DNA of 20,000 nucleotides, from positions 56,816 to 76,815 of the forward strand of contig DATMBG010000039.1 in the NCBI GenBank assembly GCA_035559535.1, read 5' to 3'. The position numbers and the translations under genes were made by a program. Every line of letters begins with the position of its first letter. Position 1 is the first letter of the stretch. This DNA comes from Candidatus Limnocylindrales bacterium. GTDB taxonomy: Bacteria; Moduliflexota; Moduliflexia; Moduliflexales; JAUQPW01. Shown here piece by piece: positions 1,504 through 20,000 of the stretch. Under the pieces are notes generated by a model. It saw nothing but the letters and a program-made list of their open reading frames with translations, was not told the origin of the DNA and did no database searches.

Positions 1504-2391
1504 ATGGGAAAGCAACTTACTTTTATGGACCGACTCTACAGTCTGATAGACAGGCTTTTCGATAAGTTAGAAAAAATCTGGGAAAGCATCTATACCCAGC
1601 GGATAGTCACCGATTTACTGGTTCTTGCCTTTGTAATTGGATTAATCGTTATTGAACTGAATCGAAAGGGAGTACTTCCAGAAACTCTCAGCGAGTGGGT
1701 CCCCCGCAACCATTTCTACGCAGTAGGTTTGGCCTTTACCTTACTTCTGTTCCTGGAAGCCATTGGGTTGGTCTTTGCACTTGCTCATTCCGTGGCTGAC
1801 TCTCTGGGTAAGCAATTTCAGGTGCTCTCTTTGATTCTTTTACGTAAACCTTTCAAAGAGTTTATATACTTCGACGAACCTATCACCTGGACCCAGGTCT
1901 CCAGTCCTGTACTTCATATTCTTGCCGATGCGAGCGGTGCATTACTTATCTTTGTTGCCCTGGGGTTCTACTATCATGTGCAACAGCATCGTCCCATCAC
2001 CAAGGATACCCTGGAGCAGTTTAGATTTACGGCAGCTAAGAAGTTAGTGTCTCTACTCTTATTAACCCTTTTTGTAATGATTGGAGTAAATCATCTTCGG
2101 AGTTACCTGGTTCAAGGATCTATCAACAGTTTTTTCGATACCTTTTATACTCTCCTTATCTTTAGTGACGTATTGATTGTATTGATTTCGCTACGGTATA
2201 GTTCGACCTATAAGGTCGTCTTTCGCAATTCCGGTTTTGCTTTAGTTACGGTGGTGATTCGGCTGGCCTTAACCGCTCCGCCTTATATTGATGTAGGCCT
2301 TGGGCTATGTGCAGCCATTTTGGCCTTGGGATTTACGCTGGCATATAATGCCTTTGAGCCTGTGGTACGGGAACGCATTGAAAAAGACTAA
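1504..2391 (+). CDS. Polytopic membrane protein of unknown function (about 7-8 hydrophobic segments, possibly two PsiE-like repeats)
   Basis: 295-aa ORF starting 11 nt after the previous stop, with multiple long hydrophobic stretches. Confidence 0.75.
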   Translation: MGKQLTFMDRLYSLIDRLFDKLEKIWESIYTQRIVTDLLVLAFVIGLIVIELNRKGVLPETLSEWVPRNHFYAVGLAFTLLLFLEAIGLVFALAHSVADSLGKQFQVLSLILLRKPFKEFIYFDEPITWTQVSSPVLHILADASGALLIFVALGFYYHVQQHRPITKDTLEQFRFTAAKKLVSLLLLTLFVMIGVNHLRSYLVQGSINSFFDTFYTLLIFSDVLIVLISLRYSSTYKVVFRNSGFALVTVVIRLALTAPPYIDVGLGLCAAILALGFTLAYNAFEPVVRERIEKD

Positions 2392-2424
2392 AGAACTTTG
2401 TCAGGTAGGATAAAAAGGGAGGGG

Positions 2425-2447
2425 AATCCTTGGGATCAAGGATTTTT
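2425..2447 (+). terminator. Possible intrinsic terminator between convergent genes
   Basis: AATCCTTG-ggat-CAAGGATT 8-bp hairpin followed by Ts, in the gap between stops at 2391 and 2483. Confidence 0.4.
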
Positions 2448-2482
2448 AATTCTTTTCAAAATCAAACGGGACGTTTAACCTA

Positions 2483-2866
2483 CTAATCGGAGTTTCCCTC
2501 TGAAAGCCATCTAAGAATTCTAAAGTGCAAGGCCGCACTATTAAGATCTTCCATTTCACAAAATACTTTCATAAACTCGCGGCCTTCTATAAGGTAGCAC
2601 AGATCCTTAAAAAATAACGCAATAATAACCCCTTTACAGGTTTCTGGATCGATGGATTTATTTTTTAAGTATCGGACCAGAGTCGGATAGATTTTATCAC
2701 GCAAATACTCCCAGGATTTATCCACGGGCAAAACAACTTCATAAAAAAGAACTTTATCCCCGGACTCTTCCTGGGTTTTAGATAATTCTTCCAAAGTTTG
2801 GTTGTAAGCGATACCCGGTATGATTTTAAAGGCTTTTGAGAATAAAAGCTCACGAAAATCGGCCAC
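2483..2866 (-). CDS. Hypothetical soluble protein (127 aa), last gene of the HPF-sigma/anti-sigma/baeRF1 unit
   Basis: GTG start with AGGAGG RBS (2875-2880), 33 nt after the baeRF1 stop. Globular alpha/beta-like composition. Confidence 0.8.
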   Translation of the reverse strand: MADFRELLFSKAFKIIPGIAYNQTLEELSKTQEESGDKVLFYEVVLPVDKSWEYLRDKIYPTLVRYLKNKSIDPETCKGVIIALFFKDLCYLIEGREFMKVFCEMEDLNSAALHFRILRWLSEGNSD

Positions 2867-2899
2867 AGTTGGAACCTCCTCAAGTAAGATTTCTCCTCG

Positions 2900-4075
2900 T
2901 CAAGCCGGTGGTAAAGCTCGAAGGGAAGCCGGCATTTTAAAGCGGAGTAAAGCTCCGATCCTTCCCAGTTGTTTTAAAATAGGATTATTTGGGATATGTT
3001 CCACTTCTCCCCGTTGGCGGTAGACTTCTTCAATAGCTTCATCTACCACATCGGGGACCTCTTCAAGGGGTCCTTGACAAATCGGGCAGGATTTTTCTTC
3101 CACCGTGGTTAAAAGTCCACAATTCCGGCACTCTAAGCCGGGAGCCGAAAAATCTTCCTCTACCAACAGGGTATGGATATTTCCTACATAAAGGGCTTTT
3201 AAGGTATCGTGTAACCCGGAGACCCCAAAGCCTCCCGTAGCCACTTCTTCCATAAGTCGGGTTACCAGTTGCACTTCCTGCTTCTGTTCCACATCTCTTT
3301 CGATCTGAAGGATTTGAGTCTTAATTTCCTGGATGGGGGTTTCCACATCCAGATCCAGCCGGGCGACCAATCTTTTTATGAGGAAGCTATGTAAACATCT
3401 TTCAAATTCCGGGAGGATATCGCTTCGTCCTCCAATAACAAGATAGTCGAAGCGCTTCTCTTTGAAGAAATCAAAGACCCGATCGGCAACCTGTTTAAGA
3501 TGCCGATAAACATGGTATTCAATATGACGCTCGATGCGTTTTTCTTCCAGACCGTACCACCCGGCTATCCGAACTTTTCCCGGAACCTCCTCATCAAAGA
3601 CTTTAAAATGCTCTAGAATTTCGCCTAAATACACCTCAAAGATTCTGGCTTTATCGCGACTGACCAGGACTAAACAATAGCGATGATATTCATCCAGGAG
3701 AACGGTTAGAGGGCGTATGTAGGGATCATTTCCAACCACGAGAACATTCTTAACAGGTCGGGGAAGCCGATATACTTGCCAGAAATCCTTTCCACTACAG
3801 GAGAAAATAGCCAGACCTCTGGTATTATTTCGTTTAAACTCTTCTCCTACAAAACGCTCGATTTTTTCAAAATCTTCTTCCAGGGATTTCATGACCCCAT
3901 GGGGTAGGTGTTCTGCTTCCAGCTCCAGCCGCCGTTCTTTAATTAAATTTTTAGTGATTGTTTCATAATCCCGGGGGGTATATTTACTTCCATCTACATT
4001 CAGATAAAAGCTACAGGTCTTATAGGTTTCTCCCTTAAAATTTAAAAGTTTCTCTATATCTGCCGAAGAAATCAT
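2900..4075 (-). CDS. Bacterial archaeo-eukaryotic release factor homolog (baeRF1, family-10-like / Balon-like) with a C-terminal Zn ribbon
   Basis: aeRF1-like three-domain layout: N-domain (SFYLNVDG...GLAIFSC), linker PYIRPL, middle domain (LVLVSRDKARIF...LVIGG), C-domain (G.SGL..TL.AL..G.I.TLLV, CRNC...CPIC, IGALLRF). ATG at 4075 is preceded by GGAGGTAAGGAG; the track's TTG at 4078 is the alternative. Confidence 0.88.
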   Translation of the reverse strand: MISSADIEKLLNFKGETYKTCSFYLNVDGSKYTPRDYETITKNLIKERRLELEAEHLPHGVMKSLEEDFEKIERFVGEEFKRNNTRGLAIFSCSGKDFWQVYRLPRPVKNVLVVGNDPYIRPLTVLLDEYHRYCLVLVSRDKARIFEVYLGEILEHFKVFDEEVPGKVRIAGWYGLEEKRIERHIEYHVYRHLKQVADRVFDFFKEKRFDYLVIGGRSDILPEFERCLHSFLIKRLVARLDLDVETPIQEIKTQILQIERDVEQKQEVQLVTRLMEEVATGGFGVSGLHDTLKALYVGNIHTLLVEEDFSAPGLECRNCGLLTTVEEKSCPICQGPLEEVPDVVDEAIEEVYRQRGEVEHIPNNPILKQLGRIGALLRFKMPASLRALPPA

Positions 4076-4139
4076 CAACTTCTCCTTACCTCCTTGTTGG
4101 TATCCTGGGATAGTCCGTTAAAGAAATCAGATTTCTTTG

Positions 4140-4376
4140 TTATTCTCGATTTTCTAAAGCTTGCTGAATCAATTTTTCCACCCGCTCTGAATAACCTTCC
4201 GGAAGGTCTACTTCTTCTAAAGTTGTAAAGAACTCTTCCGCCAGATTTAAAAGGGTCAGACGCTCTTCACAATTTGGGCACTCTTTAATATGTTCGGCAA
4301 TATCTTGAAGCAGGTCGGGGTGGAGTCCCTTATCCATATATTCTGAGAGGTAATTTATCACCAACTGACATTCCAT
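4140..4376 (-). CDS. Soluble zinc-binding anti-sigma factor (ZAS / zf-HC2)
   Basis: M.C......LS.Y.D..L.......HIKECPNC gives the HxxxCxxC signature. No TM helix. GGAGGTGA RBS. Lies directly downstream of an ECF-like sigma gene. Confidence 0.88.
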   Translation of the reverse strand: MECQLVINYLSEYMDKGLHPDLLQDIAEHIKECPNCEERLTLLNLAEEFFTTLEEVDLPEGYSERVEKLIQQALENRE

Positions 4377-4421
4377 AAACTTCCTTCACCTCCGTATCGG
4401 ATTCTTCTAAGAAAAGAAGCC

Positions 4422-5435
4422 TTACACGAGTTCTGTTTCTTCCAACTTTGCTTGTAAGAATTCCCGTGCAGATTGAATTTCTTTTCGTACCTCATCAACG
4501 GATTTTCTCCTCACCCAGGCCACTTCTTCCAGGCTGAAGCCTTCCACGCTGTAAAGTATAAAAGATTCCCGCCAGCCTTTGGGGAGTTGACTCAAGGTTT
4601 GATGAATATATTTTTGAATTTCTTGACGGGTTACGATCTCTTCAGGAGTCGGCATCTTATCATCCGGTACGAGATCTTCCAGTTTTAGAGTTTCATCCGG
4701 TTGCCAGAAATCCAGTATTTCACTTCCCAGGGTAGAGACGGCCTCTGTAGGCTCCGGTTCTGGAATTTCGGTTTCAACAGGAACTCTGGCCTCTCGCTCT
4801 GCTTTAATTTTCTCAACTTCCCGTTCCAAAATATCCAGGGCAATCCGATATAACCAGCGATCCAGGGGAAAGGAATCCGGCTTCTGATCAAAGTTTCTTA
4901 CTGCAAACAGAACAGTCTCATCTACTACGTCGGTAATCGTCAGATCATAGGGTTCTATATCTTCTATGAGTTGATGGTAGATGATCTCCCTTCGGACAAA
5001 ATTATAGAGTTTCTTAAGTTGAGGAAGGATCAGGTCGGTAAGTGCCTTAGCTTCATAGGTCTTTTCATAAGGAGCCATTCCCGAAACAAGTTCTTGAACT
5101 TGGAATTTAGCCCGCTTTCGCTTATAGGCATCTTCCATTCGGAGCTTACTTTTAACATCTTCCAGTTGCTTGAGGAGCTCTCCACAGACTTCTTTCAAAA
5201 CATGCCGAAGGTTCTTACCTTGCTCCTCGGCATGGAGTTGTCGTTTGGGAAGGGAAAGGGTGAAAAGAGCTGCATACTCCTCTTTTCTTGGGTGTTTCTC
5301 CAGGGTTACATGTAGAAATACTTGATCTTCCGGGAACTTTAAGGTTCGCCGTTCTATTCTTTTAATCTGTCTTTCCAGATAGTTCTTAATCGAAAACGCC
5401 GGCTCCAGATTCTTGTAGAAAACTTCGTGTCGCAA
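4422..5435 (-). CDS. Fusion of an HPF/RaiA (S30AE) ribosome-hibernation domain and an ECF-type sigma-70 factor (sigma2 + sigma4)
   Basis: The N-terminal ~100 aa fit the HPF beta-alpha-beta-beta-beta-alpha pattern (RHEVFYKNLE...IKNYLERQIKRIER...LHVTLEK...LSLPKRQLHAEEQG.NL...L..QL...K.KLR). Then sigma2-like LYNFVRR...DVVDET...WLYRIA and sigma4-like LSQLP..WRESFIL..VEGFSLEEVA. The likely start is TTG at 5435, 5 nt after GGAGGTGA (the track uses GTG 5453). Confidence 0.82.
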   Translation of the reverse strand: MRHEVFYKNLEPAFSIKNYLERQIKRIERRTLKFPEDQVFLHVTLEKHPRKEEYAALFTLSLPKRQLHAEEQGKNLRHVLKEVCGELLKQLEDVKSKLRMEDAYKRKRAKFQVQELVSGMAPYEKTYEAKALTDLILPQLKKLYNFVRREIIYHQLIEDIEPYDLTITDVVDETVLFAVRNFDQKPDSFPLDRWLYRIALDILEREVEKIKAEREARVPVETEIPEPEPTEAVSTLGSEILDFWQPDETLKLEDLVPDDKMPTPEEIVTRQEIQKYIHQTLSQLPKGWRESFILYSVEGFSLEEVAWVRRKSVDEVRKEIQSAREFLQAKLEETELV

Positions 5436-5741
5436 CAGACTCACCTCCGACACTCAATCCAACAGGATGAGAAGGGGATACTGGATTTGGAGGGAAACTG
5501 CCTTCCTTTCAGGGTTTTTTTCTTGACTTTGGGTTGTATTTGTGGGCTCTGGTCTTCAACCTGTTTGGGTCAGGTTAAAGGATCCAGAGCGCACGGGGTA
5601 GGGGTTTTCAGAAGGTTGATTCGGAAAAGCTACCTTCTCTCCCCTTTCTTAACATGGGCCAGGAAATTTACCCGTTGAATCGGATTCGGATCAACTGTTA
5701 TTGGATATCCTATACCTTTGTAGTGCCTTTACAGGCTTCCT

Positions 5742-7466
<1,725 letters not shown>

Positions 7467-7485
7467 TGGATCCTTCTCGGGACGG

Positions 7486-7773
7486 CTATTCTAGAATGGC
7501 TAAGACATCATCTTCTCGTAGGATGAGATACTCTTCCTCATCGAGTTTAACTTCAGTTCCCGCATATTTGCCGAAGAGAACTTTCTGACCAACCTGAACT
7601 TCCAGGGGCAATTGTTTACCGTTTTCTAACCACTTCCCCTTTCCAACCGCAATAACTTCACCCTGTTGAGGTTTCTCCTTGGCGGTATCTGGGATGATGA
7701 TCCCTCCTTTCCGAACTTCGGGTTCTTCTATTCTTTTAACGACGATTCGATCATGAAGTGGAGTAATTTTCAT
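7486..7773 (-). CDS. groS: Co-chaperonin GroES (Cpn10)
   Basis: [32 protein letters not shown] and KYAGTEVK motifs. AGGAGG RBS. Confidence 0.99.
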
Positions 7774-7891
7774 CGTTACTACCTCCTTTCAGGTGCAGTT
7801 TGACCATGGATTTTTAGAAAATTCTCTGACTTTAAGGTAAACTCTCAGGTATACCCAGGACGGTTGAAGGTTTTAGATGAGATTCACTTTT

Positions 7892-7920
7892 ATTATAAAA
7901 TCTTAGTCCGAATTTATCAA
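7892..7920 (-). promoter_or_regulatory. Sigma-70 type promoter for groES-groEL
   Basis: Minus strand reads TTGATA-N17-TATAAT (-35 at 7915-7920, -10 at 7892-7897), about 120 nt upstream of groES. Confidence 0.7.
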
Positions 7921-8025
7921 GTCTTTTTCTAATAACTTTAGAAAGTTAAATTCCCTCCTAAGGGTTATCCCCCTTCCCTTTTGTAAAAAATAGAGTAAAA
8001 AAACTTTGTTTATTTTTAACTGGGA

Positions 8026-10053
8026 TTAATCCTGGGTATAGAGTTGACGTATGTCATCTTCACGCCCCAATACGACCAGGATATCTCCTTCTTCCAGTTT
8101 TCGGTTGGGGTCTGGGAAGTGTCGCTGTTCCTTTCCATTTCGCCCGGGACTGATCACCGCTAAAACATTGAGGTGGTATTGAGTTCGGAGATTAGTTTCC
8201 CCAATGGTCCTACCGACCAGTTCAGGAGGTACTACAATTTTATCGATTCGGAATCCTTCCGGTAGCTCCAGACGATCGGTTAAAAGTTTATCTTCAGACC
8301 TGGTCACAAATCGGGACAGGAGCATTTTCCTTCGAAGGGCTTCCCGATCCAGGGTACTTAGGACATCCCGGCGGGTTACAATACCGAGAAACTGTAAAGA
8401 ATCTTTGCTTCTAACTACGGGCAACTCTTCCAGATCTTGAAGCCAGAACTTCTCTAAAACGTCTGCAAGTCGGTCCATAGGGTAGGCCACCGAGACCGGA
8501 GTGGCAAGGTCTTTGGCTATAACAAGGGTTTCAAGGTCTTTCTCAGAGAGGAACTCCTTGATATCGTGCAGGTTGATGACCCCTAAGAGATTTCCTCGCT
8601 GGTCTCCTACGTACAGATAGTCACTTCGGGAGGCATAAAATCGTTTTAGGATTTCATCGAAACGGAGATTTTCCGGGAGAAGCGAAACGCCTGTTTTTAA
8701 AATATCCTGAACCCGCATCGAATAGAGGACCATCTCTTCCATCCCACGGCTGAGTTGAATTCCGCGTTGTTTAAGTCTTTCGGTATAGATAGACTCTGGT
8801 TTGATCTTGCTGGCCACATAACTGCTGAGGATGCAGGAGAGCATTAAGGGAAGGATAATTCCGTAATCCAGTGTCAGCTCAAAAATGATCAGAATGGCCA
8901 TGATAGGGGCATGGGTTGTTCCGGCCAGCAGACATCCCATACCTACCAGGGCATAAGCCCCTGAGGGGGCCGTCAAGAGAGGAAAGAAATAGTTAACCGC
9001 ATTTCCTACTGCCCCTCCGAGGGCGGCTCCCACGAAGAGGCTGGGAGTAAAGACTCCTCCAGAACCGCCGGAGCCGACAGTGATGGCCGTGGCAATAATT
9101 TTTAAGAAAAAGAGGATCAGTACCAGGGGTCCGGGAAGCTGCTGATTTAAAATTCGGCTTGCGACTTCATAACCATTACCCCAGACGTGGGGAAAACTTA
9201 ATCCGAGGATTCCTACGAGGAATCCTCCCAAAGGAATCTTAAAATAAGCAGGAATTTTAATTTTTTTGAAAATTTCTTCTCCTTTAAAGAGGGCCTCAAT
9301 AAACAAATAGGCTGCAAATCCAGCCAGGATTCCCAGAAAGACATAAAAAATGAGCTCGAAATGGCTGACCATGGAAAAGGGTGGGATACGGTAGGTCGGT
9401 TGATTGCCCATGACTCCCCGGGATACAAGGGTTGCAGCAACCGAAGAGATCACCACAGGGGCAAAAATATCGGTAGCAAAGTTTCCCATGATAATCTCTA
9501 GAACGAAAATGGCGGCAGCGATGGGGGTATTATAAGCCGCTGCCATACCCGAGGCAACCCCACATCCCACCAGGATGCTCAGCTTGATTCTGGATATGCG
9601 GAGTAATTGCCCGAATTGGGAAGCAAGCATGGCCCCGATTTGTACGATAGGTCCCTCTCGGCCAACCGATCCGCCTGAACCAATGATCATCAACGACGAA
9701 AGGGATCTGAAAAGGACCGAACGAACTTCGATCTCTCCCCCCCTTAAAGAGACTGCCTCCATGATGTCAGAAATTCCGTAGGATTTAGTTTTTTTGGCCA
9801 GGGAATAGAGAATAAAGCTGGCCAGGGTTCCCCCTGCCGTGGGAACTAAAATCCGGTAATACCAGGGAAGTTGAAGGGCCGCATCCAGCAGATTTTCCCA
9901 AGAGCCTAGAAAGAGTCTTTGAACGATAGCCGTCAGATACTTAAAAATAATAGCTCCAAAGCCTCCCAGTATCCCTACGATGCCTGCATAGAGAAATAAA
10001 AGGGTCGTTTCATCCGGTCGGATTTGCCTGGGTTCTCTCAGAAAGACTCGCAT
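8026..10053 (-). CDS. CLC-family anion channel/transporter with a C-terminal CBS pair and a TrkA-C (RCK_C) domain
   Basis: GSGGSVGREGP, GxFxP (GGVFTP) and SIYT motifs with many TM helices. CBS-like repeats follow (G.LLGVI...DI; LPVV...LGIVTRRDVL), then an RCK_C-like tail (LVGRTIGETNLRTQY.LNVLAV...P.P...LEEGDILVVLG). Confidence 0.93.
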   Translation of the reverse strand: MRVFLREPRQIRPDETTLLFLYAGIVGILGGFGAIIFKYLTAIVQRLFLGSWENLLDAALQLPWYYRILVPTAGGTLASFILYSLAKKTKSYGISDIMEAVSLRGGEIEVRSVLFRSLSSLMIIGSGGSVGREGPIVQIGAMLASQFGQLLRISRIKLSILVGCGVASGMAAAYNTPIAAAIFVLEIIMGNFATDIFAPVVISSVAATLVSRGVMGNQPTYRIPPFSMVSHFELIFYVFLGILAGFAAYLFIEALFKGEEIFKKIKIPAYFKIPLGGFLVGILGLSFPHVWGNGYEVASRILNQQLPGPLVLILFFLKIIATAITVGSGGSGGVFTPSLFVGAALGGAVGNAVNYFFPLLTAPSGAYALVGMGCLLAGTTHAPIMAILIIFELTLDYGIILPLMLSCILSSYVASKIKPESIYTERLKQRGIQLSRGMEEMVLYSMRVQDILKTGVSLLPENLRFDEILKRFYASRSDYLYVGDQRGNLLGVINLHDIKEFLSEKDLETLVIAKDLATPVSVAYPMDRLADVLEKFWLQDLEELPVVRSKDSLQFLGIVTRRDVLSTLDREALRRKMLLSRFVTRSEDKLLTDRLELPEGFRIDKIVVPPELVGRTIGETNLRTQYHLNVLAVISPGRNGKEQRHFPDPNRKLEEGDILVVLGREDDIRQLYTQD

Positions 10054-10318: not shown

Positions 10319-10348
10319 TTGACGGTTTTACAGGCTTATGGTTACATT
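10319..10348 (+). promoter_or_regulatory. Possible sigma-70 promoter of glnE (would give a leaderless transcript)
   Basis: TTGACG (10319-10324)-N18-TACATT (10343-10348), ending 6 nt before ATG 10355. Confidence 0.4.
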
Positions 10349-10354
10349 ATTTCC

Positions 10355-13300
10355 ATGTCGGATTTTAAAAATTATCTTCTTCAGGAATTATCAGATCTTT
10401 TACTCAAGTATCCCTTTAAGGATTCCCGAAAAGCCTCTCAAAATCTCAACCATATCCTCGAAAGGGTCAAGGGGAATTTTAAATCTGTTTCCACGTTGAA
10501 AACCTCAGGCGTTTCAGTGGGGGTCAATTCAACCAAGGGTTCAACTCCAGACTCGGCCCTAAACTCCCTACCTGATTTTTTTTTGGAAAAGCTGCTGGAA
10601 GCTGCTCACCAGGCCCCTGATCCGGATAGTGCCCTTAATAACCTGGAAAGATATCTCGAGGCCATCCCCAGACCCGGTGACTTCCTATCTAAAATAGAGG
10701 AAAATCCAATGGTTCTGCAAGTCCTCATGAATCTTTTTGGTACCAGTCCCTATCTCTCCGATATTTTGATTCGGAATCCCCACTACCTGAGTTGGCTGGC
10801 GGATTTGGATAAGCTTCGGTTTCCCAAAAGTAAGGAACTTCTCTACCAGGAACTGACTGCGTTTCTGAGTGGAGATGGAGCTCCCTCACCTTTATCCAAG
10901 AAGGAAAAGCTGGCTCTCCTTCGTATTTTTAAAAAAAGGGAAATTTTACGGATCGGGGTTCGGGATATTCTCCGATATGGAGGGGTTAAAGAAATTACCG
11001 AAGAGCTCTCAGATTTGGCAGATGTTCTTATCCAGGGAGCTTATGAAATCTGCGATGCAGAGTTAAAGGAAAAATACGGAACCCCTTACTATCCAGATCC
11101 TCAAGGAGGATGGCGAGAGTGTAAGTTTACTGTATTGGGGATGGGCAAGTTAGGTGGAAGGGGGCTTAATTTTAGCTCGGATATCGATCTGATGTATTTA
11201 TACTCTGCAGATCCGGGAGAGACCTCCGGTTCCAGGGAAGGAAAGCAAAAACACTCCCTCAGCAATCCTGAGTATTTCAGAAAGCTTTCCACCGAAATTA
11301 CTTCGGCCCTCTCCGATGTAACCCCGGAGGGATATGTGTACCGGGTGGATTTAAGATTACGGCCGGAAGGTAAGAGTGGTAATATTGCTTACTCTTTACG
11401 CAGCTATGAGATTTACTATGAATCGTGGGGGGAGACCTGGGAACGGCTGGCTTTAATCAAAGCGCGCCCTGTAGCTGGGGATATGGAACTGGGGGAAGCT
11501 TTTTTGAAGATGATACGACCCTTTGTTTATCGAAAATATATGGACTACGGAGCTATTAACGAAATCAAAGCACTCAAGGACCGGATCGATCGAAAGGTAT
11601 TTATCAGTGGCGAAAAAAACCTCCATGTCAAATTAGGTTTTGGAGGGATTCGGGAGATAGAATTCAGTATCCAGGTTTTACAATTGCTATATGGAGGCAA
11701 AATTCCACAAATCCAGGAGAGAAATACCCTGCTGGCTCTTGAAAAGCTTCGCCAATACAATCTCCTGTCCCAGGAGGATTATACTCACCTGCGGGATGCC
11801 TATCTCTTTTTACGAGATGTAGAGCATAAGCTTCAGATTGTTCATGAATTCCAAACCCATACCCTTCCCACTGATCCTGAAAAACTGGAATTATGTGCCC
11901 GAAGGCTGGGCTATCGTCCTATCCCTGGGGAACGAACTTCCACAGCCACCGAGCAGTTCATGCACGATTATCGACTTCATACCTTCCGGGTCAACAGAAT
12001 CTTTCAGAGTTTGTTTGAGGGTTCCTTAGATCGTTCCGCCTCGGGTATCGGACTTTCCAGTCAAATGACTCCCGAAGTGGCCATGATCCGAAATCAGGAT
12101 TTTCCCAAGGAGCAGGCCTATCAAATTTTACAAAAGTATGGATTTCGAGATATTCCCAGGGCCTATCACATCATTCTCCTTTTGAGAGACGGCCCTGTGT
12201 TTGTTCACTATTCAGCCAAAACCCGGGGACTTCTGGCTACTATCATGCCTTTTATTCTTGAATATGCCGGCCAGTCCCCCGATCCCGACCAGGCCCTTAA
12301 CCATCTGGAGAAGTTTGTTTCTGTAGCCGGTGCCAGAACCACCCTTTATGCACTTCTTGCCAATAATCCCAAGGTCATTGAACTGCTCCTTCGGCTTTTC
12401 GGTCATAGCGATTTTCTCTCGGAAATTCTCATCCGATATCCGGATATGTTGGATGTACTTCTCAACCCGGAGGTTATAGAACAGGCCAGATCCCGGGAGC
12501 AGATGTATCAGGAACTTCAGATAGCCGTCGGTTTGAAATCTCCCCCTACACCGGAAGCCGGTCCAGGTTCCGTTCCTACCGATTTGCCTTCTCGAATAAG
12601 TAAACTACGGCAGTTCAAGCAAGCGGAGACTCTTCGGATCGGATTGAGGGATATCTTGGGTAAGGCTGACTTTCCGACAACTTTGAAGGCCCTTTCGGAT
12701 TTAGCAGATGTCTGTGTGCAGGTCGCCTATGAAATAGCCCAGAGAGAACTCCAGGGTCGGTATGGAATTCCCCAGGCTGATGGAAAAGAATGCGCATTCG
12801 CCATTATGGGACTGGGGAAATTGGGGGGGCAGGAGTTGAACTATACGTCAGATTTGGATGTGTTGTATGTGTACGATAAAAATGGGATGACCACTGGCGT
12901 GGGACAGAGCCTGGATCTACCCGAGAAGATCTCCGAACCTCCCATCCAGATCGAAAATTATCTTTATTTTTTAAAGCTCATTGAGTTTTTAAATAAAATT
13001 CTCGGGGAACCCGGCGTGGATCCTGTTGCTTTCAAACTGGACCCGCGTCTTCGCCCTGAGGGTCGGAAAGGACCTCTGGCCATTCCCTTTGAAAATTATC
13101 GTGAATACTACCAAACCCGGGCAGAAACCTGGGAACGTCAGGCCCTGATTAAAGTCCGATTTATTGCCGGAAGTGAAAACCTCGGTCATTCATTTATCCG
13201 AATGGCCCATGGCTATATTTACCGAAAGGATGTTGATGTCTACAGGAAAACACCTCTTCAAGTGGAAATTCGGGAGATGAAGAAAAAGATGGAGGCTAAA

Positions 13301-13717
13301 ATAGCCTGGGAGATTTTGGAACGAAGTCATCATGTCAAGCTGGGGAGTGGCGGTATCGTAGATATCGAATTTATGGTTCAGTTCCTGCAACTCCAATATG
13401 GACCTCAAAATCCTTCTGTCCGTCAGGCCGGTACCTTACCGGCCTTAGAAAGTCTTTATCGAGAGGGATTTCTTCCCGAGGCAGATTACAAACAGCTTAA
13501 AGAATCTTATGTCTTCCTGCGAACGGTGGAAAACCGCTTGGGAATTGTTCAGGAACTTCCCATTAAAGTTCTTCCAACTTCACCCGAAGACAGGCTTAAA
13601 CTGGCAAAACGCATGGGTTATATGGGAGATCAGGCCGGTGAAACTTTCCTGAAGGATTATGAAAAACATACTACCGCAGTAAGGGAATTGTATAAGAAGA
13701 TTTTCTGGAGTTCATAG
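10355..13717 (+). CDS. glnE: Bifunctional glutamine synthetase adenylyltransferase / adenylyl-removing enzyme
   Basis: Two nucleotidyltransferase modules: GMGKLGG..LNFSSDIDL...RVDLRLRPEG...WERLALIKAR...KLG.GGIREIEF and GLGKLGGQELNY.SDLD...D.RLRPEG...WERQAL.K.R...K...GGIVDIEF. The start is uncertain (ATG 10355 preferred over TTG 10319). Confidence 0.96.
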   Translation: MSDFKNYLLQELSDLLLKYPFKDSRKASQNLNHILERVKGNFKSVSTLKTSGVSVGVNSTKGSTPDSALNSLPDFFLEKLLEAAHQAPDPDSALNNLERYLEAIPRPGDFLSKIEENPMVLQVLMNLFGTSPYLSDILIRNPHYLSWLADLDKLRFPKSKELLYQELTAFLSGDGAPSPLSKKEKLALLRIFKKREILRIGVRDILRYGGVKEITEELSDLADVLIQGAYEICDAELKEKYGTPYYPDPQGGWRECKFTVLGMGKLGGRGLNFSSDIDLMYLYSADPGETSGSREGKQKHSLSNPEYFRKLSTEITSALSDVTPEGYVYRVDLRLRPEGKSGNIAYSLRSYEIYYESWGETWERLALIKARPVAGDMELGEAFLKMIRPFVYRKYMDYGAINEIKALKDRIDRKVFISGEKNLHVKLGFGGIREIEFSIQVLQLLYGGKIPQIQERNTLLALEKLRQYNLLSQEDYTHLRDAYLFLRDVEHKLQIVHEFQTHTLPTDPEKLELCARRLGYRPIPGERTSTATEQFMHDYRLHTFRVNRIFQSLFEGSLDRSASGIGLSSQMTPEVAMIRNQDFPKEQAYQILQKYGFRDIPRAYHIILLLRDGPVFVHYSAKTRGLLATIMPFILEYAGQSPDPDQALNHLEKFVSVAGARTTLYALLANNPKVIELLLRLFGHSDFLSEILIRYPDMLDVLLNPEVIEQARSREQMYQELQIAVGLKSPPTPEAGPGSVPTDLPSRISKLRQFKQAETLRIGLRDILGKADFPTTLKALSDLADVCVQVAYEIAQRELQGRYGIPQADGKECAFAIMGLGKLGGQELNYTSDLDVLYVYDKNGMTTGVGQSLDLPEKISEPPIQIENYLYFLKLIEFLNKILGEPGVDPVAFKLDPRLRPEGRKGPLAIPFENYREYYQTRAETWERQALIKVRFIAGSENLGHSFIRMAHGYIYRKDVDVYRKTPLQVEIREMKKKMEAKIAWEILERSHHVKLGSGGIVDIEFMVQFLQLQYGPQNPSVRQAGTLPALESLYREGFLPEADYKQLKESYVFLRTVENRLGIVQELPIKVLPTSPEDRLKLAKRMGYMGDQAGETFLKDYEKHTTAVRELYKKIFWSS

Positions 13718-13958: not shown

Positions 13959-14328
13959 AGTAATATAGTTTGTTAAAGTTCCAGGTATCCCCCTTGACAA
14001 AGCCTTCAAGGGTAGTTTTTTAGTTGGGAAGGGGGAACTTTGGAATTACCTGGGTCTCAACTCTTTCCTTCCTTAGGAGGGAAAGGGAGTCAGAGAGGCT
14101 AGATCCAAAAAACCTGCCCCAGAAAGCCCTGACAAAGGAAGAAGATTTCTCATCTTCTCTTTATGGTAAACTATCGATTTTATTTATCCATGAAGAAGGT
14201 AGAAGTCTGAGGGGTAGAGGCGTATCGGTGTGAATTCTCCTACCATGCTCCTACTTCCCCATTTTTCAGGATCCTTCATGGATTTATGGTTAAAAACTGC
14301 AAAAGTAAAAGGAGCGTCAAGGATTCCT

Positions 14329-14937
14329 ATGACAGCAGTATTGAAAATCGGCGTTGGTGGCCCAGTAGGGTCAGGTAAAACCGCTTTAATTGATACCCTT
14401 TGTAAAAGGATGCGAGATACTTATCAGTTAGGGGTAGTAACCAATGATATCTATACCAAGGAGGATGCAGAATTTTTGATTCGAAGTGGGGCTTTACCTC
14501 CGGACCGGATTATCGGTGTTGAGACAGGTGGATGTCCCCATACGGCTATCCGGGAGGATGCTTCCATTAACCTGGAAGCTATTGAAGAGTTAATAACCCG
14601 AATTCCCCAACTTCAAATTATTTTTGTAGAAAGTGGAGGAGATAACCTGGCCGCCTCTTTCAGTCCCGAGTTGGTAGATGCCTGGATCTACGTGATTGAT
14701 GTTTCTGAAGGAGATAAAATACCTCGAAAAGGGGGTCCCGGAATTACCCGTTCTCATCTCCTGATAATCAATAAAATCGACCTAGCTCCTTATGTAGGAG
14801 CCAATCTTGAGGTCATGCGGAGAGATTCTTTGAAGATGAGAAATGGAAAACCTTTTATCTTTACCAATTTAAAAACCGGCGAAGGAGTCCAGGATGTAAT
14901 CCGATGGATTCAGCGAGAACTGCTTTTTGAGGCCTGA
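14329..14937 (+). CDS. ureG: Urease accessory GTPase UreG
   Basis: [13 protein letters not shown]-loop, [21 protein letters not shown] (Ni-binding CPH), ESGGDNL, RKGGPGI and NKID. The start is placed at ATG 14329 (MTAVLKIG...) because the track's extra 33 aa do not look like UreG. Confidence 0.96.
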
Positions 14938-15072
14938 TACCGTAATTTAATCTCCATTCCTATTCCTTAACAGGGAGGAAAGGCCCCCTGCCGACCCAGG
15001 AAGGGGCGCTGGAGGAGACAGGTCCAAAAAACTTACCCCAGAAAAGGGAGGGAAGGAGAGGTCATACCTTTC

Positions 15073-15939
15073 ATGGAGGCTTACTACAGGCCTGGGAGGG
15101 CCGGGATATTACGATTAGAATTTGAAAAGCATAACGGAAAGACCGTTTTAGTCCGTTCTTATTCAAAACTTCCGTTACAAATTTTACGTCCTTATCCCTT
15201 CCGCGAACCGGATTTAGTCTATCTTCCTTTGATTAATCCTACCGGAGGAATTGTAGGTGGGGACACTTTCCATATTCACATCTCCCTCAGAAAAGGCGCT
15301 CGGGTTTATCTCACAACCCAATCTGCTACCAAGATCTATCGAATGATAAAGGGAGAAGAGAGTGTTCAGCAAATAACCTTTGAAATCGAGGAAGGGTCTG
15401 AGCTGGCTTATCATCCCGACAAAGTCATCCCCTTTGGAGGATCTTCCTTTCGCCAGACGCTTCACGTTCACCTGGATGTCACCAGTCAGTTTTCTATGTC
15501 TGAAATTCTTACGCCGGGTCGGCTCTTCAGAGGGGAAAAATTCTCGTTTCAAAGATATTACAGTCGTACCGAAATACGCGAGGAAAATACCCTGGTGTTT
15601 CTGGATACGTTGGATCTCCAACCTGAAAAAGAAAACCTCCTGGAACCGGGTTGTCTGGAGGGATTTGAGTATCTGTATACGGCTTACTTTCATTATAAAA
15701 AAATCCTGCGGAGTTCGGAAAAACCCCGGAACTTCTTAACCTATCTTCTCCAGGAACTTCAACGTCTCTCAACCCCTTCCTTTCAGAAAGAAAACCAAAC
15801 CGAAGGTCCCCAATCCCTCCTCCTGGGTTCTGCAACGACTACCCACTATGGCGGAATCCTGGTCAAGGTTTTATCCCATTCCTCTGTTTTATTAGATGAA
15901 TTTTCCCACCGTGTCCGAGATCATCTATATCCCGCCTGA
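15073..15939 (+). CDS. ureD: Urease accessory protein UreD/UreH
   Basis: G.L.L.F....G.T.L......PL, NPTGGIVGGD, LTTQSATKIY, P...IPF.GS and EI..PGR...GE.F motifs. Adjacent to ureG. Confidence 0.9.
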   Translation: MEAYYRPGRAGILRLEFEKHNGKTVLVRSYSKLPLQILRPYPFREPDLVYLPLINPTGGIVGGDTFHIHISLRKGARVYLTTQSATKIYRMIKGEESVQQITFEIEEGSELAYHPDKVIPFGGSSFRQTLHVHLDVTSQFSMSEILTPGRLFRGEKFSFQRYYSRTEIREENTLVFLDTLDLQPEKENLLEPGCLEGFEYLYTAYFHYKKILRSSEKPRNFLTYLLQELQRLSTPSFQKENQTEGPQSLLLGSATTTHYGGILVKVLSHSSVLLDEFSHRVRDHLYPA

Positions 15940-17319: not shown

Positions 17320-19110
17320 TTAAATTGCAATGGGAAACACCAATCGAACCGTGGTTCCCTTCCCGACCTGGCTTTCAATCCGCATGGACCCTTCATGAAC
17401 CTCTACCAGGTGTTTAACAATGGCCAGGCCTAACCCGGTTCCACCTTCAGCCCGGGACCTAGCCTTATCGACTCGATAGAAGCGCTCTCCCAATCTCGGA
17501 AGGGCGCTTTCAGGAATTCCAATTCCAGTATCTTTGATGGCTATTTCTATCCGATGGGGTTGATCTTCTTTCACCCGGGCTTCAATACTTACCCTTCCTC
17601 CTTTTTCCGTGTATTTAATTCCATTATCCACCAGATTCACCAGAATCTGGATCAACCGATCTCGATCAGCCAAAACAGGGGGAAGGTCCTTGGAGGCCTC
17701 GAAGGTAAGTTGAATCCCTTTATCCAGGGCCTTCTGTTGCAACATGAGAAGCACGCTCTGAACCACCTGTTCCACGGGCACCGCACTTCTCTCGATTTTT
17801 ATCTTTCCCAGCTCGATGTTGGAGAGGGTTAGAAGGTCATCTAATAATCGGCTCAAGCGATCACTATGGCTGGCCACGATTTTTAGAAACCGGATGGCAT
17901 GGTCTTTATCGTCTATGGCTCCATCCAATAAGGTTTCGACAAATCCTTTAATGGCAGTTAGTGGAGTCCTCAGCTCATGGGAGACATTGGCTACAAAATC
18001 AACCCGCATCTGTTCCAATCGTTTTATTCGCGTGACATCCCGAAAAACCAGGATGGTTCCCTCTGGACTCTCCTCTTCTCCTTTAATAGGAACTGCCTCC
18101 ACGGCAAGGTCTGTTTTTCGGGGAGATAAAATTTGAAGCTCATCGGAAACTTTGGATTTTTTTTCTTGAACCTCTCCAATGAGATTTTGGATGGTTTGAC
18201 TTTGAAGGACCTCCAGGAGCTTAGAAGTATCCGGACCAAAAAGTTTTTCCATTACAGGATTGCTTAAGATAATTTTACCGTGCTTATCAATGACCAGAAC
18301 CCCATCGGTCAGACTTGCAAGAATGGTTTCTTTTTCCTTTTTTTCTTCGAAGACCGCTTTCAGTTCTTCTCCTAATTTCTCGGCCATCTGGTTCAAATTC
18401 TGGATTAAAGTTCCCCATTCATCCTGGGAGGTTACCTTCATGCGCTCTTCCAGCTCTCCGCGGGCAATCCGTTGGGTAAAAGCTATAATGCTTAAAATTT
18501 TACTTTCCAGGGAACGGGCCAGAGAGATTCCTAATATGACTGCAAGGAGCATAGCCATCAGAGAACCCAGCATAATTTTGTTTTGTATTTCCCGCAGATT
18601 ATGTTCGACTTCTGTCAGAGGAAGTGCCATCCGAAGAAATCCGATGAGTTTTGGGGCTTCCGAAGTTCCTGAAGTTTCTAAAGCCCGACTTGATTTTTTA
18701 ATAGGTAAGGCCACGTAAATCAGGTTTTGATGAAGGGTTGAACTGAATCGGATAGCCGTTCCTCTACCCTTCTGAAGGGCTTCTTGGATTTCTGGCCTGA
18801 AAAGATGGTTCTCCATGGAAGACGATGCTTGATCGGAATCTCCAAGTACCTTACCTTCTGAATTTAGGATGGTAATTCTGGCTTCAACCCGATGCTTTAA
18901 AGATCGAGCGAACGCGTCTAGAGAAGGGTCCTCTGAAAGATCGGGGAGATAGGATAAGAGGAGGTTAGCTTCAGAAAAGAGATGTTGTTCAATTTGGGTG
19001 ATAAAAAAGCTTTTTAAAGTAAAGGTGAGATAAAGCCCCAATACCCCTGTACATAGGAGGATCACCAGCAGGTAGCTGCCCAAAAGTTTCCAACGAATTC
19101 GTTTTCTCAA
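17320..19110 (-). CDS. phoR: PhoR-like sensor histidine kinase (TM-sensor-TM-HAMP-PAS-HisKA-HATPase)
   Basis: MENH..RPE sensor motif, DFVANVSHELRTPLT.IKGF.ETL H-box, NLVDN.IKYT, DTGIGIP and ERFYRVDKARSR..GGTGLGLAIVKH. The TTG start overlaps the regulator's TGA. Confidence 0.9.
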   Translation of the reverse strand: MRKRIRWKLLGSYLLVILLCTGVLGLYLTFTLKSFFITQIEQHLFSEANLLLSYLPDLSEDPSLDAFARSLKHRVEARITILNSEGKVLGDSDQASSSMENHLFRPEIQEALQKGRGTAIRFSSTLHQNLIYVALPIKKSSRALETSGTSEAPKLIGFLRMALPLTEVEHNLREIQNKIMLGSLMAMLLAVILGISLARSLESKILSIIAFTQRIARGELEERMKVTSQDEWGTLIQNLNQMAEKLGEELKAVFEEKKEKETILASLTDGVLVIDKHGKIILSNPVMEKLFGPDTSKLLEVLQSQTIQNLIGEVQEKKSKVSDELQILSPRKTDLAVEAVPIKGEEESPEGTILVFRDVTRIKRLEQMRVDFVANVSHELRTPLTAIKGFVETLLDGAIDDKDHAIRFLKIVASHSDRLSRLLDDLLTLSNIELGKIKIERSAVPVEQVVQSVLLMLQQKALDKGIQLTFEASKDLPPVLADRDRLIQILVNLVDNGIKYTEKGGRVSIEARVKEDQPHRIEIAIKDTGIGIPESALPRLGERFYRVDKARSRAEGGTGLGLAIVKHLVEVHEGSMRIESQVGKGTTVRLVFPIAI

Positions 19111-19805
19111 ATCTGCTCTGCGAATTTATATCCGATGCCTCGAACCGTTTTAATATATCGAGGGGCCGCGGGATTTTCTTCAATTTGAGATCGCAAGCGT
19201 GTAATGTGGACATCGACCGTTCGAGGTTCTACAAATACTTCGTCTCCCCAAACGGCTTGAAGCAACTGATCTCGGCTATAAACCCGTCCTCGATTCATCG
19301 CAAGAAATTTTAATAACTTAAAATCCGTAGCGCTTAAGTTAAGGGGCTGTCCTTTAAAGAGAACCTGATATTTCTCTGTATCGATGGAGAGATCTCCAAT
19401 TTGAATAACAGGGGTTTCGGTGATTGCAGCCTCTATGCGTCGTAATACCGCTTTAACTCGAGCCACCAGCTCTCGGGGGCTAAAAGGTTTTGTAATATAA
19501 TCATCTGCCCCGAGCTCTAAGCCGAGGACTTTGTCCATCTCTTCTGCCCGAGCTGTTAACATAATAATAGGGATTTTTGAGGTTGCGGAGTTATTTTTTA
19601 ACCGTTTGCAAATCTCAAAGCCCTGGATACCGGGTAGCATCAAATCTAAAATAATGAGGGAAGGAAGTTCTTTCTGAATGAGTTTGAGGGCTTCTACCCC
19701 ATTCTGCGCACTGTAAACGTTAAATCCTTCCTTTTTTAGATTATAGGCAACTAATTCTATCAGGTCGCTTTCATCATCGATAATTAAGATTTTTTTTGAT
19801 AACAT
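19107..19805 (-). CDS. phoB: OmpR/PhoB-family response regulator (PhoP/PhoB-like)
   Basis: ILIIDDE, LDLMLPG, IMLTA, GADDYITKPFSPREL and the winged-helix RTVDVHI.RLR...IKTVRGIGY. ATG 19805 has a GGAGG RBS at 19808-19812. The track's extension to 19841 runs into the IS end. Confidence 0.9.
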   Translation of the reverse strand: MLSKKILIIDDESDLIELVAYNLKKEGFNVYSAQNGVEALKLIQKELPSLIILDLMLPGIQGFEICKRLKNNSATSKIPIIMLTARAEEMDKVLGLELGADDYITKPFSPRELVARVKAVLRRIEAAITETPVIQIGDLSIDTEKYQVLFKGQPLNLSATDFKLLKFLAMNRGRVYSRDQLLQAVWGDEVFVEPRTVDVHITRLRSQIEENPAAPRYIKTVRGIGYKFAEQI

Positions 19806-19828
19806 AACCTCCCAATCCATCTTTCTTA

Positions 19829-20000
19829 CTGATCTTTGCATAAATATCTAATAAAATCCAAGCTGTTTAATACAACCTTGGATCACATGAATTTTATGTC
19901 GTAAACGTTCCTTAGCCTTACGAAGTTCATACCGTAACTGACAAAGATGTTGACAACTCAAATTCTTCAACTCAACCCGTTTCAAGTAGTTCCAGATCCC
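19829..20000 (-). mobile_element. Right end of an IS630-family insertion sequence (continues beyond the window)
   Basis: Carries the transposase C-terminus (see next feature). A candidate terminal repeat CTGATCTTTGCATAA starts at 19829, next to a TA dinucleotide (19827-19828), the IS630 target site. Confidence 0.7.
19848..20000 (-). CDS. C-terminal 50 aa of an IS630-family DDE transposase (partial; not in the ORF track)
   Basis: Manual translation from 20000: GIWNYLKRVELKNLSCQHLCQLRYELRKAKERLRHKIHVIQGCIKQLGFY*. This resembles the (NP.E).IW..LK....N helix that follows the catalytic Glu of IS630 transposases. Confidence 0.75.
   Translation of the reverse strand, partial: GIWNYLKRVELKNLSCQHLCQLRYELRKAKERLRHKIHVIQGCIKQLGFY

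Follow-up and report, generated by a model that had tools for sequence, protein, structure and literature searches.

An HPF-ECF sigma, zinc anti-sigma and baeRF family-10 gene cassette in a heat-shock cluster of a Moduliflexota genome

The window analysed here is a stretch of 20,000 nucleotides from a Moduliflexota genome (assembly GCA_035559535.1, contig DATMBG010000039.1, positions 56,816 to 76,815), in which four co-oriented genes at 2483-5435, referred to as g1 to g4, lie 3′ of groES and groEL on the minus strand. In this order they encode a fusion of a hibernation-promoting factor (HPF) domain with an extracytoplasmic function (ECF) sigma factor, a zinc anti-sigma factor (ZAS), an aeRF1 homologue of baeRF family 10 (baeRF10) and a protein of the STAUR_1299 family. 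The descriptive core of this report is solid: the first three genes form a conserved HPF-sigma/anti-sigma/baeRF10 cassette in a heat-shock cluster, and g1 belongs to a family that holds both the published HPF-SigE chimeras and orf11 of the transmissible stress-tolerance locus, or locus of heat resistance (tLST/LHR). A first-pass annotation, made from the sequence alone, had proposed the four open reading frames (ORFs) with their starts, spacings and ribosome-binding sites (RBSs), and inspection of ORFs and sequence bears this out. The intergenic gaps are 45 nt between g1 and g2, 64 nt between g2 and g3 (61 nt if counted from a TTG) and 33 nt between g3 and g4, and a GGAGG-type RBS lies 5′ of each gene.

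Gene products and surroundings of the cassette

The product of g1 had been read as an HPF-ECF sigma fusion, and both halves score above curated cut-offs. Pfam Ribosomal_S30AE (PF02482) is matched with 32.1 bits against a cut-off of 23.7 (residues 13-105 of a 343-aa form), Sigma70_r4_2 (PF08281) with 26.0 against 25.7, and the NCBIfam model sigma70-ECF (TIGR02937) with 50.7 against 42.9, residues 137-337 of the 343-aa form corresponding to model positions 2-165. The profile searches suggested by the first-pass annotation were successful for Ribosomal_S30AE, Sigma70_r4_2, zf-HC2 and baeRF, with Sigma70_r2 in g1 as the exception; TIGR02937 covers sigma region 2 of g1, and the predicted structure superposes on whole ECF sigmas. 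Among 54 scanned members of the family, S30AE is found in 47 and Sigma70_r4_2 in 48. The start is placed at a TTG 5 nt past GGAGGTGA; an alternative GTG at 5453, which would give the 343-aa form, is less well placed.

In the AlphaFold2 model of g1, made with the 54 family members (pLDDT 87.4, pTM 0.61), a long helix joins the HPF domain to an ECF sigma composed of sigma2, a linker with an acidic motif and sigma4, with low confidence at residues 101-130 and 217-260. Residues 1-100 are predicted to adopt the beta-alpha-beta-beta-beta-alpha fold of HPF, and the model resembles solved HPFs with a TM-score (TMt) of 0.81 for 8uu7_w (root-mean-square deviation 2.4 Å over 100 columns), 0.87 for 4hei_A and 0.85 for 2rql. 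The C-terminal dimerisation domain of long HPFs is absent; residues 124-337 are an ECF sigma instead, and in the model residues ~124-337 superpose on anti-sigma-bound ECF sigmas (SigW/RsiW, TMt 0.71-0.72; CnrH, 0.72; RpoE/NepR, 0.76). Sigma4 is matched by phmmer to PDB chains of sigma-H, AlgU and sigma-E (E 9e-9 to 6e-7), and its LPxxxR...EG pattern is conserved, P285, R289 and L294 being nearly invariant in the 54 sequences. The linker between sigma2 and sigma4 is predicted to be disordered, yet nowhere is the family better conserved than in a block within it, EILDF(Y/W)QPDExLKLEDL, which is also present in Klebsiella tLST orf11; this block may be a short linear motif for a putative partner.

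The HPF domain of g1 is basic (isoelectric point 9.59), close to that of the canonical 185-aa long HPF encoded in the same genome (9.95). Two further S30AE genes of this genome are HPF-cold-shock-domain chimeras, whose HPF domains are not basic (6.84 and 6.19). With four S30AE genes in all, the genome combines all three published HPF architectures.

The assignment of g2 as a zinc anti-sigma factor is upheld by zf-HC2 (PF13490), matched with 28.3 bits against a cut-off of 22.2. Residues C3, H29, C33 and C36 are invariant in all nine homologues and make up the C-x25-H-x3-C-x2-C ligand set of ZAS proteins, spaced as in RsrA. No hydrophobic segment is apparent by eye. The best NCBIfam match is the equivalog model antisig_RsrA (TIGR03988), whose cut-off of 62.5 lies well above the 25.8 bits of g2. 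Prediction of the g1-g2 complex, one of the checks proposed at the outset, gave a score of 0.81, against 0.00 for the best of three controls; this mark is reached by 58 of 80 solved complexes and by 2 of 110 mismatched pairs. Contact agreement between the runs is at least 73% and the pLDDT of the partner at least 82. The model puts g2 between sigma2 and sigma4, where it contacts g1 residues 125-180 and 270-332. Because complexes of ECF sigmas with ZAS proteins have already been solved, this result may reflect likeness to them rather than proven binding.

The third gene had been described as a GGQ-less aeRF1 homologue, which holds true: baeRF_family10 (PF18854) is matched with 100.3 bits against a cut-off of 27.1 and eRF1_3 with 32.7 against 25.8, and the sequence contains neither GGQ nor NIKS. 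The GGQ of archaeal aRF1 (8hku) aligns to AGWYG of g3, and in an alignment of 50 sequences the loop of the subfamily to which g3 belongs reads (A/G)GW(Y/G)G. Glutamine occupies the GGQ position in none of the 45 database-derived rows, which comprise the window g3 and its closer relatives. Glutamines flagged in 16 of the 50 rows sit elsewhere: where the rows are database-derived, they stand ahead of a conserved VPG or within the helix downstream, and in the five rows from g1-linked loci they stand inside or behind a loop of different build (...WSQK...). The four zinc-ribbon cysteines are kept in 50, 50, 50 and 39 of the 50 rows. The protein matches Balon of M. smegmatis (8v9j) at E 3.4e-8, and it is the only baeRF10 encoded in the 5.6-Mb window genome. 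These sequence features would fit a non-catalytic binder of the ribosomal A site.

Table 1. Positions of the cassette genes, their domains and neighbouring features in the window; S30AE regions outside the window are given by contig
Feature	Position	Strand	Basis or remark
g1, HPF(S30AE)-ECF sigma fusion, HPF-SigE / tLST orf11 family	4422..5435	-	337 aa
g1 residues 1-100, HPF/YfiA-type N-terminal domain	5136..5435	-	PF02482; fold match to solved HPFs
g1 residues ~124-216, sigma region 2-like helices	4788..5066	-	TIGR02937; fold matches SigW, CnrH, RpoE
g1 residues ~217-263, sigma2-sigma4 linker with acidic motif SEILDFWQPDETLKLEDLVPD	4647..4787	-	pLDDT 49-60
g1 residues 264-337, sigma region 4 (helix-turn-helix)	4425..4646	-	PF08281; phmmer matches
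g2, soluble zinc anti-sigma factor (ZAS)	4140..4376	-	78 aa; zf-HC2, invariant ligands, complex model
g3, baeRF family-10 aeRF1 homologue, GGQ-less, C-terminal Cys4 zinc ribbon	2900..4075	-	ATG; TTG at 4078
g4, STAUR_1299-family protein	2483..2866	-	GTG start; 127 aa
groES	7486..7773	-	ORF, 95 aa; 55% identity to annotated GroES, Paraburkholderia plasmid locus L003
groEL	5742..7364	-	ORF, 540 aa; 66% identity to annotated GroEL, L003
groEL-g1 spacer, 306 nt	5436..5741	-	between groEL and g1
Sigma-70-like promoter match TTGATA-17-TATAAT	7892..7920	-	5′ of groES; 11/12 consensus positions
Hairpin	2422..2447		between convergent ends of g4 and plus-strand gene 1504..2391
S30AE region, long HPF	C22:123703-123969		outside window
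S30AE region, 182-aa HPF-cold-shock chimera	C41:2436-2729		outside window
S30AE region, 178-aa HPF-cold-shock chimera	C37:124774-125043		outside window

The proposal that the 127-aa protein g4 is a fourth part of the module does not stand. It belongs to NCBIfam NF041086 (STAUR_1299; 124.6 against a cut-off of 50, residues 8-117), a family without known function, and has no Pfam match. The gene is absent from five of five other genomes with g1 relatives, three of which have g1 beside baeRF10, and it occurs in two of nine genomes of the phylum of the window, both in the genus of the window. Of 52 metagenomic g4 loci, a single one (L024) has g3 alongside. The recurrent neighbours of the metagenomic g4-family genes are subunits of 2-oxoacid:ferredoxin oxidoreductase (12 and 11 loci), Hsp20 (10 loci) and a CMD/AhpD-like protein (8 loci); the neighbourhoods of these STAUR_1299-family genes (L025-L075) hint at a role in redox or heat stress. 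A search with NF041086 of 301 genomes from the phylum of the “Myxococcales” metagenome-assembled genome G009 gave no match above the cut-off and one weak match, and is uninformative on the context of g4. The structure model is confident (pLDDT 89.5, pTM 0.81) and resembles no PDB fold (best Foldseek E 0.1; best VIA-align Z 3.7 among 48,161 chains), and its best Atlas score, 0.82, is under the Atlas noise line. We conclude that g4 is a lineage-specific neighbour confined to the genus of the window and near kin, and not a conserved member of the cassette, from which it is removed here. With Hsp20 as a recurrent neighbour elsewhere, it is probably stress-related without being dedicated to the cassette.

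A consensus scan found no minus-strand terminator-like site between groEL and g4, groEL-g1 spacer included. The hairpin beyond g4 was scored as a plus-strand terminator-like site, and on the minus strand it reads as a stem followed by ...cccttttta; it likely ends the transcription unit and, to judge from its sequence, may terminate in both directions. The RNA of the groEL-g1 spacer is predicted to fold unusually stably (minimum free energy -91.7 kcal/mol, z -3.4, none of 100 shuffles equally stable), and a long imperfect hairpin lies around 5550-5595. An RNA thermometer over the g1 RBS (5425..5492) was considered and rejected (z 0.02; 104 of 200 shuffles as stable). Rfam gave no match at E<=1 over 2300..8100, spacer included, and no CIRCE/HrcA operator was present in the window with up to 3 mismatches to the consensus. 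The promoter 5′ of groES is a consensus match only, the total of promoter-like sites in the region not being above that of shuffles. PADLOC returned no match for the g1-g4 proteins.

Just 5′ of groES, the same strand encodes a ClC chloride channel that has CBS and TrkA-C domains (8026-10053). Further away, the regions 10319-13717 (+), 14230-15939 (+) and 17320-19841 (-) encode GlnE adenylyltransferase, a CobW/UreG-type GTPase and UreD, a phosphate-selective porin and a histidine kinase/OmpR-type response regulator pair. On the other side, two plus-strand genes converge on g4: one for a large protein truncated at the window edge, of which the C-terminal TPR/MalT-like part is present (2-1492), and one for a 295-aa multi-pass membrane protein without Pfam match (1504-2391).

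Distribution and gene linkage of the g1 family

A word-based search yields 8 relatives of g1, and an exhaustive profile search yields 371 cluster representatives at E<=1e-30; most of the best 150 of these 371 align from the HPF part through sigma4, as read off the table of matches. The gene neighbourhoods of relatives were surveyed in two sets. The first holds 18 loci from genome contigs, found with an 8-sequence alignment that favours closer relatives. The second derives from 201 sampled genomes of the phylum of genome G010, 17 of which (a tally that includes G362) have a relative at E<=1e-25; 16 loci were analysed.

In the first survey, baeRF10 is present in 7 of 18 loci (L004, L005, L006, L007, L008, L019 and L021) and a small ORF with an HxxxCxxC motif lies directly 3′ of g1 in 8 of 18 (L004, L005, L006, L008, L009, L010, L012 and L013). 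In L007 and L017 the position of the ZAS gene is held by a thioredoxin with an N-terminal zinc ribbon (Trx2), as in tLST. In the second survey, baeRF10 is directly downstream in 3 of 16 loci (L106, L107 and L112), and the ZAS motif is in none of the 16. Overall, the g1 relatives are linked to baeRF10 in 10 of 34 loci, to ZAS in 8 of 34 and to Trx2 in 2 of 34, counts that are lower bounds since several loci end 1-2 kb from g1. For a single-copy gene in a 5.6-Mb genome, the chance that baeRF10 falls within the ±7-kb flank is ~0.25%, against the 10 of 34 observed; g1 and g3 are neighbours far more often than chance would allow.

The idea of one module made of g1 to g4 is therefore retained for the g1-g2-g3 trio, which recurs in other phyla, and given up for g4, which is no recurrent partner in the neighbourhood survey. 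The recurrence of the trio indicates that the fusion, the ZAS and the GGQ-less aeRF1 homologue are a real, conserved association. In a g1 tree of 33 rows, from which the partial matches L017, L019, L020 and L100, plus L096, were left out, the baeRF10-linked g1 genes fall into at least four separately supported clades. The baeRF10 proteins beside g1 relatives (L005, L019, L106, L107, L112 and L021), compared with the window at 3540-3590, show three loop types, namely GWYG, TGxDHIWSQK and GRSDG[FY]AGYD, all with the zinc-ribbon cysteines. The window g3 is 26-34% identical to baeRF10 proteins beside other g1 genes and up to 57% identical to database proteins. Given this low identity across loci and the three loop types, the association looks old or repeatedly re-formed, rather than inherited as one block. 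The remaining genes next to g1 relatives are of proteostasis or tLST type: GroES, GroEL, DnaK and three Hsp20; Hsp20 twice with DegP; BON with DegP; PsiE; and FtsH, Hsp20 and an HdeD-type DUF308 protein.

Full-length relatives of g1 with 26-32% identity are found on 285 plasmid records, chiefly of Klebsiella (114), Enterobacter (74), Acinetobacter (31) and Escherichia (17). On Klebsiella plasmid pKPN-262 the relative is annotated as “hypothetical protein” and lies between hdeD-GI and trx-GI of the heat-resistance island; by the tLST/LHR gene order of PMC8290217 it corresponds to orf11. It is 26% identical to g1 over 95% of the query, and hhalign of the 54-sequence profile against Klebsiella orf11 gives a probability of 99.95% (E 2e-38, 338 columns), with a collinear alignment that includes the linker motif. 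Neither the S30AE nor the sigma domains are detectable by Pfam in this protein. In the tLST literature, orf11 is without assigned function, stays below 30% identity to any protein whose function is known, and is placed in an “oxidative stress module” needed for chlorine resistance (PMC8290217). Since g1 and orf11 are of one family, this family can be studied in laboratory E. coli, and the identity of orf11 may account for a gene without assignment in an island that matters for hygiene in food and hospitals.

Proposed mechanism and alternative readings

The genes are best explained as a local form of a widespread stress cassette centred on an HPF-sigma chimera. From the families involved we infer a mechanism in which a thiol-gated sigma/anti-sigma pair, whose sigma carries a ribosome-docking domain, is deployed together with a non-catalytic A-site factor; we lean towards it, if only slightly. 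In unstressed cells, zinc-bound g2 would clamp sigma2 and sigma4 of g1 and keep it off RNA polymerase. Thiol oxidation, caused by oxidants, chlorine or heat-linked proteotoxic stress, would release the zinc and free g1, which could then direct transcription of a proteostasis and dormancy set. The HPF domain of g1 would also dock in the 30S decoding channel, so that sigma availability and ribosome occupancy would be coupled, and g3, shaped like a release factor without GGQ, would sit in idle ribosomes at the A site, like Balon beside RaiA. The dedicated RsrA-like ZAS, or the zinc-ribbon thioredoxin that holds the same position elsewhere, suggests that the input is thiol stress. With a sigma factor and a ribosome-silencing domain in one protein, g1 is a rare candidate for cross-talk that links transcription and translation directly.

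A more daring form of this coupling would make the ribosome a second anti-sigma: vacant 30S or 70S particles would capture the HPF domain, and g1 would reach RNA polymerase only when oxidation of the ZAS coincides with occupied ribosomes, or else the converse would hold. We think this quite unlikely. If it were true, there would be a direct protein-level wire from translational state to the proteostasis and dormancy regulon, and tLST orf11 would carry the same device in heat- and chlorine-tolerant enterobacteria.

Several observations count against the thiol-gated mechanism. The g1-g2 model contains no contacts with the HPF domain, and nothing links redox state to ribosome binding. Pfam Sigma70_r2 is matched in 5 of the 54 family members and not in g1. 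A search for promoter dyads (5-mer/4-mer with 15-18 nt spacers) in the 300 nt preceding each of 14 g1 genes gave none shared by more than 3 of the 14 sequences, a level of 3-4 being reached by 30 shuffles, so that there is no sign of autoregulation by g1. Among 11 listed sequencing runs, none is recorded as RNA. The 306-nt groEL-g1 spacer could hold a separate promoter or processing site. In E. coli, deletion of tLST orf11 left membrane lipid oxidation after chlorine unchanged (PMC8407380). Among the 34 g1 loci, some of which end early, 24 are without baeRF10 and 24 have neither ZAS nor Trx2. One well-supported g1 clade (27-30% identity) is followed at 6-59 nt by a class I/II aminotransferase and not by stress genes (Pfam-confirmed in L018, L104, L105, L108 and L114; in L109 by ORF size and position); either this subfamily has a different role or the linkage is an accident of lineage. 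At L024 (4500-6400, on a metagenome contig), groEL, 91% identical to that of the window, precedes a GC-rich hairpin, a start-less g2 remnant (residues 29-76) and intact g3 and g4, with no g1. This natural deletion variant, in which the Balon-like gene persists without the sigma/anti-sigma pair, suggests that g3 is not strictly dependent on g1. Finally, g3 scores far below the cut-offs of the NCBIfam Balon-type models (78.9 against 330, 65.0 against 480 and 42.1 against 320); the alignments to NF052287, NF052288 and NF052289 are near full length, which makes g3 homologous to these families and not a member at the equivalog level.

It is conceivable that only one half of g1 is at work. The protein may be a hibernation factor alone, its sigma-like half no longer binding RNA polymerase and replacing the dimerisation domain, with g2 as a redox switch and without transcriptional output. 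A 2025 preprint, which is computational only, treats the HPF-SigE chimeras in just this way (bioRxiv 10.1101/2025.11.04.686544); the missing Sigma70_r2 match and the lack of an autoregulatory promoter motif agree with it, and HPFcold illustrates how a C-terminal domain of foreign origin can act in ribosome binding (PMC13392368). Against it, g1 scores above the sigma70-ECF cut-off, both of its sigma domains are predicted to fold like working ECF sigmas, the sigma4 pattern is conserved and a dedicated anti-sigma partner is kept in 8 of 34 loci; we regard this account as unlikely. Conversely, g1 may be a sigma factor only, with the HPF-like domain as a regulatory or stabilising N-terminal extension (autoinhibition, dimerisation or degron) that does not bind ribosomes, and with baeRF10 as a member of its regulon. 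Regulatory N-terminal extensions are known in ECF121 BldN and ECF36 SigC (PMC7826278), the S30AE score of 32.1 bits is modest, and Klebsiella orf11 has no Pfam-detectable S30AE. Against this stand the full HPF fold predicted for the domain (TMt 0.81-0.87), its basic character near that of canonical HPF, the presence of S30AE in 47 of 54 members, and the fact that the recurrent partner is another protein of the ribosomal A-site type, as with RaiA and Balon (PMC10901736); a role as sigma alone therefore strikes us as rather improbable.

As for g3, it could work actively in rescue or release, freeing stalled ribosomes in heat or oxidative stress, instead of being a passive hibernation plug. According to Burroughs and Aravind, family 10 stands out for a conserved glutamine and may be catalytic (PMC6514570), a view that also tells against the mechanism preferred here; g1-linked homologues in L005, L006 and L019 carry ...WSQK... 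in the loop, and all three aeRF1 domains are kept along with the zinc ribbon. The window g3 and its closest subfamily, however, lack the catalytic-loop glutamine by which that study (PMC6514570) marks family 10, as well as NIKS, and the same losses are shared by Balon homologues (PMC10901736). We consider an active g3 improbable. Its loop runs counter to the published description, and family 10 is thus heterogeneous as regards the putative catalytic glutamine. The least attractive alternative is that the four genes are neighbours by chance or through shared heat-shock expression, without physical or regulatory interplay. In its favour, g4 is an unrelated passenger and most loci lack the linkage of g1 to g3 or to g2. 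The excess of baeRF10 linkage over chance, its occurrence in separate g1 clades with different baeRF10 subtypes and a predicted g1-g2 interface that passes its controls make such a coincidence very hard to credit.

Comparison with published systems

The first-pass annotation knew of no experimental description of this combination, part of which has been described computationally. HPF-SigE chimeras have been reported computationally as “frequently adjacent” to Balon genes, with one example on plasmid pEc78, and chimeric HPFs as coexisting with a canonical HPF in the genome (bioRxiv 10.1101/2025.11.04.686544); a gene neighbourhood of baeRF-1 and HPF was reported earlier (PMC6514570). What we did not find in print is the ZAS or Trx2 partner and the identity of tLST orf11, which figures or supplements may show: the main text of the 2025 preprint, figures and supplements aside, contains no “anti-sigma”, “thioredoxin” or “heat resistance”, and that of the ECF reclassification, with the same restriction, no “ribosom”, “S30” or “hibernation”. 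A full-text literature search returned no paper joining an ECF sigma with S30AE or baeRF1 with a sigma factor, and nothing relevant that ties the locus of stress tolerance to hibernation.

The closest relatives in print are the HPF-SigE chimeras, with which g1 shares the HPF N-terminus, the lack of a dimerisation domain, the SigE-like half, a canonical HPF elsewhere in the genome, a Balon-type neighbour and a family that also occurs on enterobacterial plasmids. As a difference from the published account, the fusion in the window has a dedicated ZAS partner and a location behind groESL. The tLST/LHR shares with the loci of g1 relatives the neighbour types HdeD/DUF308, Trx2, PsiE, DegP, FtsH and Hsp20; it differs from the window in having a thioredoxin in the ZAS position and no baeRF10 in the 13-kb stretch inspected. 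A later paper (PMC13392368, Nat Commun 2026) repeats the HPF-SigE name and places the HPFcold chimera in the 30S decoding centre by cryo-EM. HPFcold (CBU_0020 of Coxiella burnetii), which joins an HPF N-terminal domain to a cold-shock domain, is like g1 a chimera that has exchanged the dimerisation domain for another, and the window genome encodes two such proteins (C41 and C37). Unlike g1, it has been seen on the ribosome, its extra domain bound to the anti-Shine-Dalgarno sequence (PMC13392368), whereas the extra domain of g1 is a sigma with a protein partner of its own.

Balon homologues are without GGQ and NIKS, and their genes occur beside RaiA, chaperones and alternative sigma factors (PMC10901736, Nature 2024). 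The window resembles the Balon systems of Psychrobacter urativorans and M. smegmatis (MSMEG_1130) in that a stress cluster places the gene of an aeRF1 homologue without GGQ and NIKS next to one of the HPF family. It differs in that g3 has an intact Cys4 zinc ribbon and in that the HPF partner is fused to a sigma and is not a free-standing RaiA.

RsrA-SigR is a redox switch of the zinc anti-sigma type; many members of the ZAS family do not sense redox state. The g1-g2 pair is like RsrA-SigR in having a small soluble anti-sigma that is encoded directly 3′ of an ECF sigma and is placed between sigma2 and sigma4 in the complex model, and in that thioredoxin takes the position of g2 in other g1 loci. 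It differs in that g2 is not an RsrA orthologue (25.8 against 62.5) and in that g1 carries a 120-residue ribosome-factor domain.

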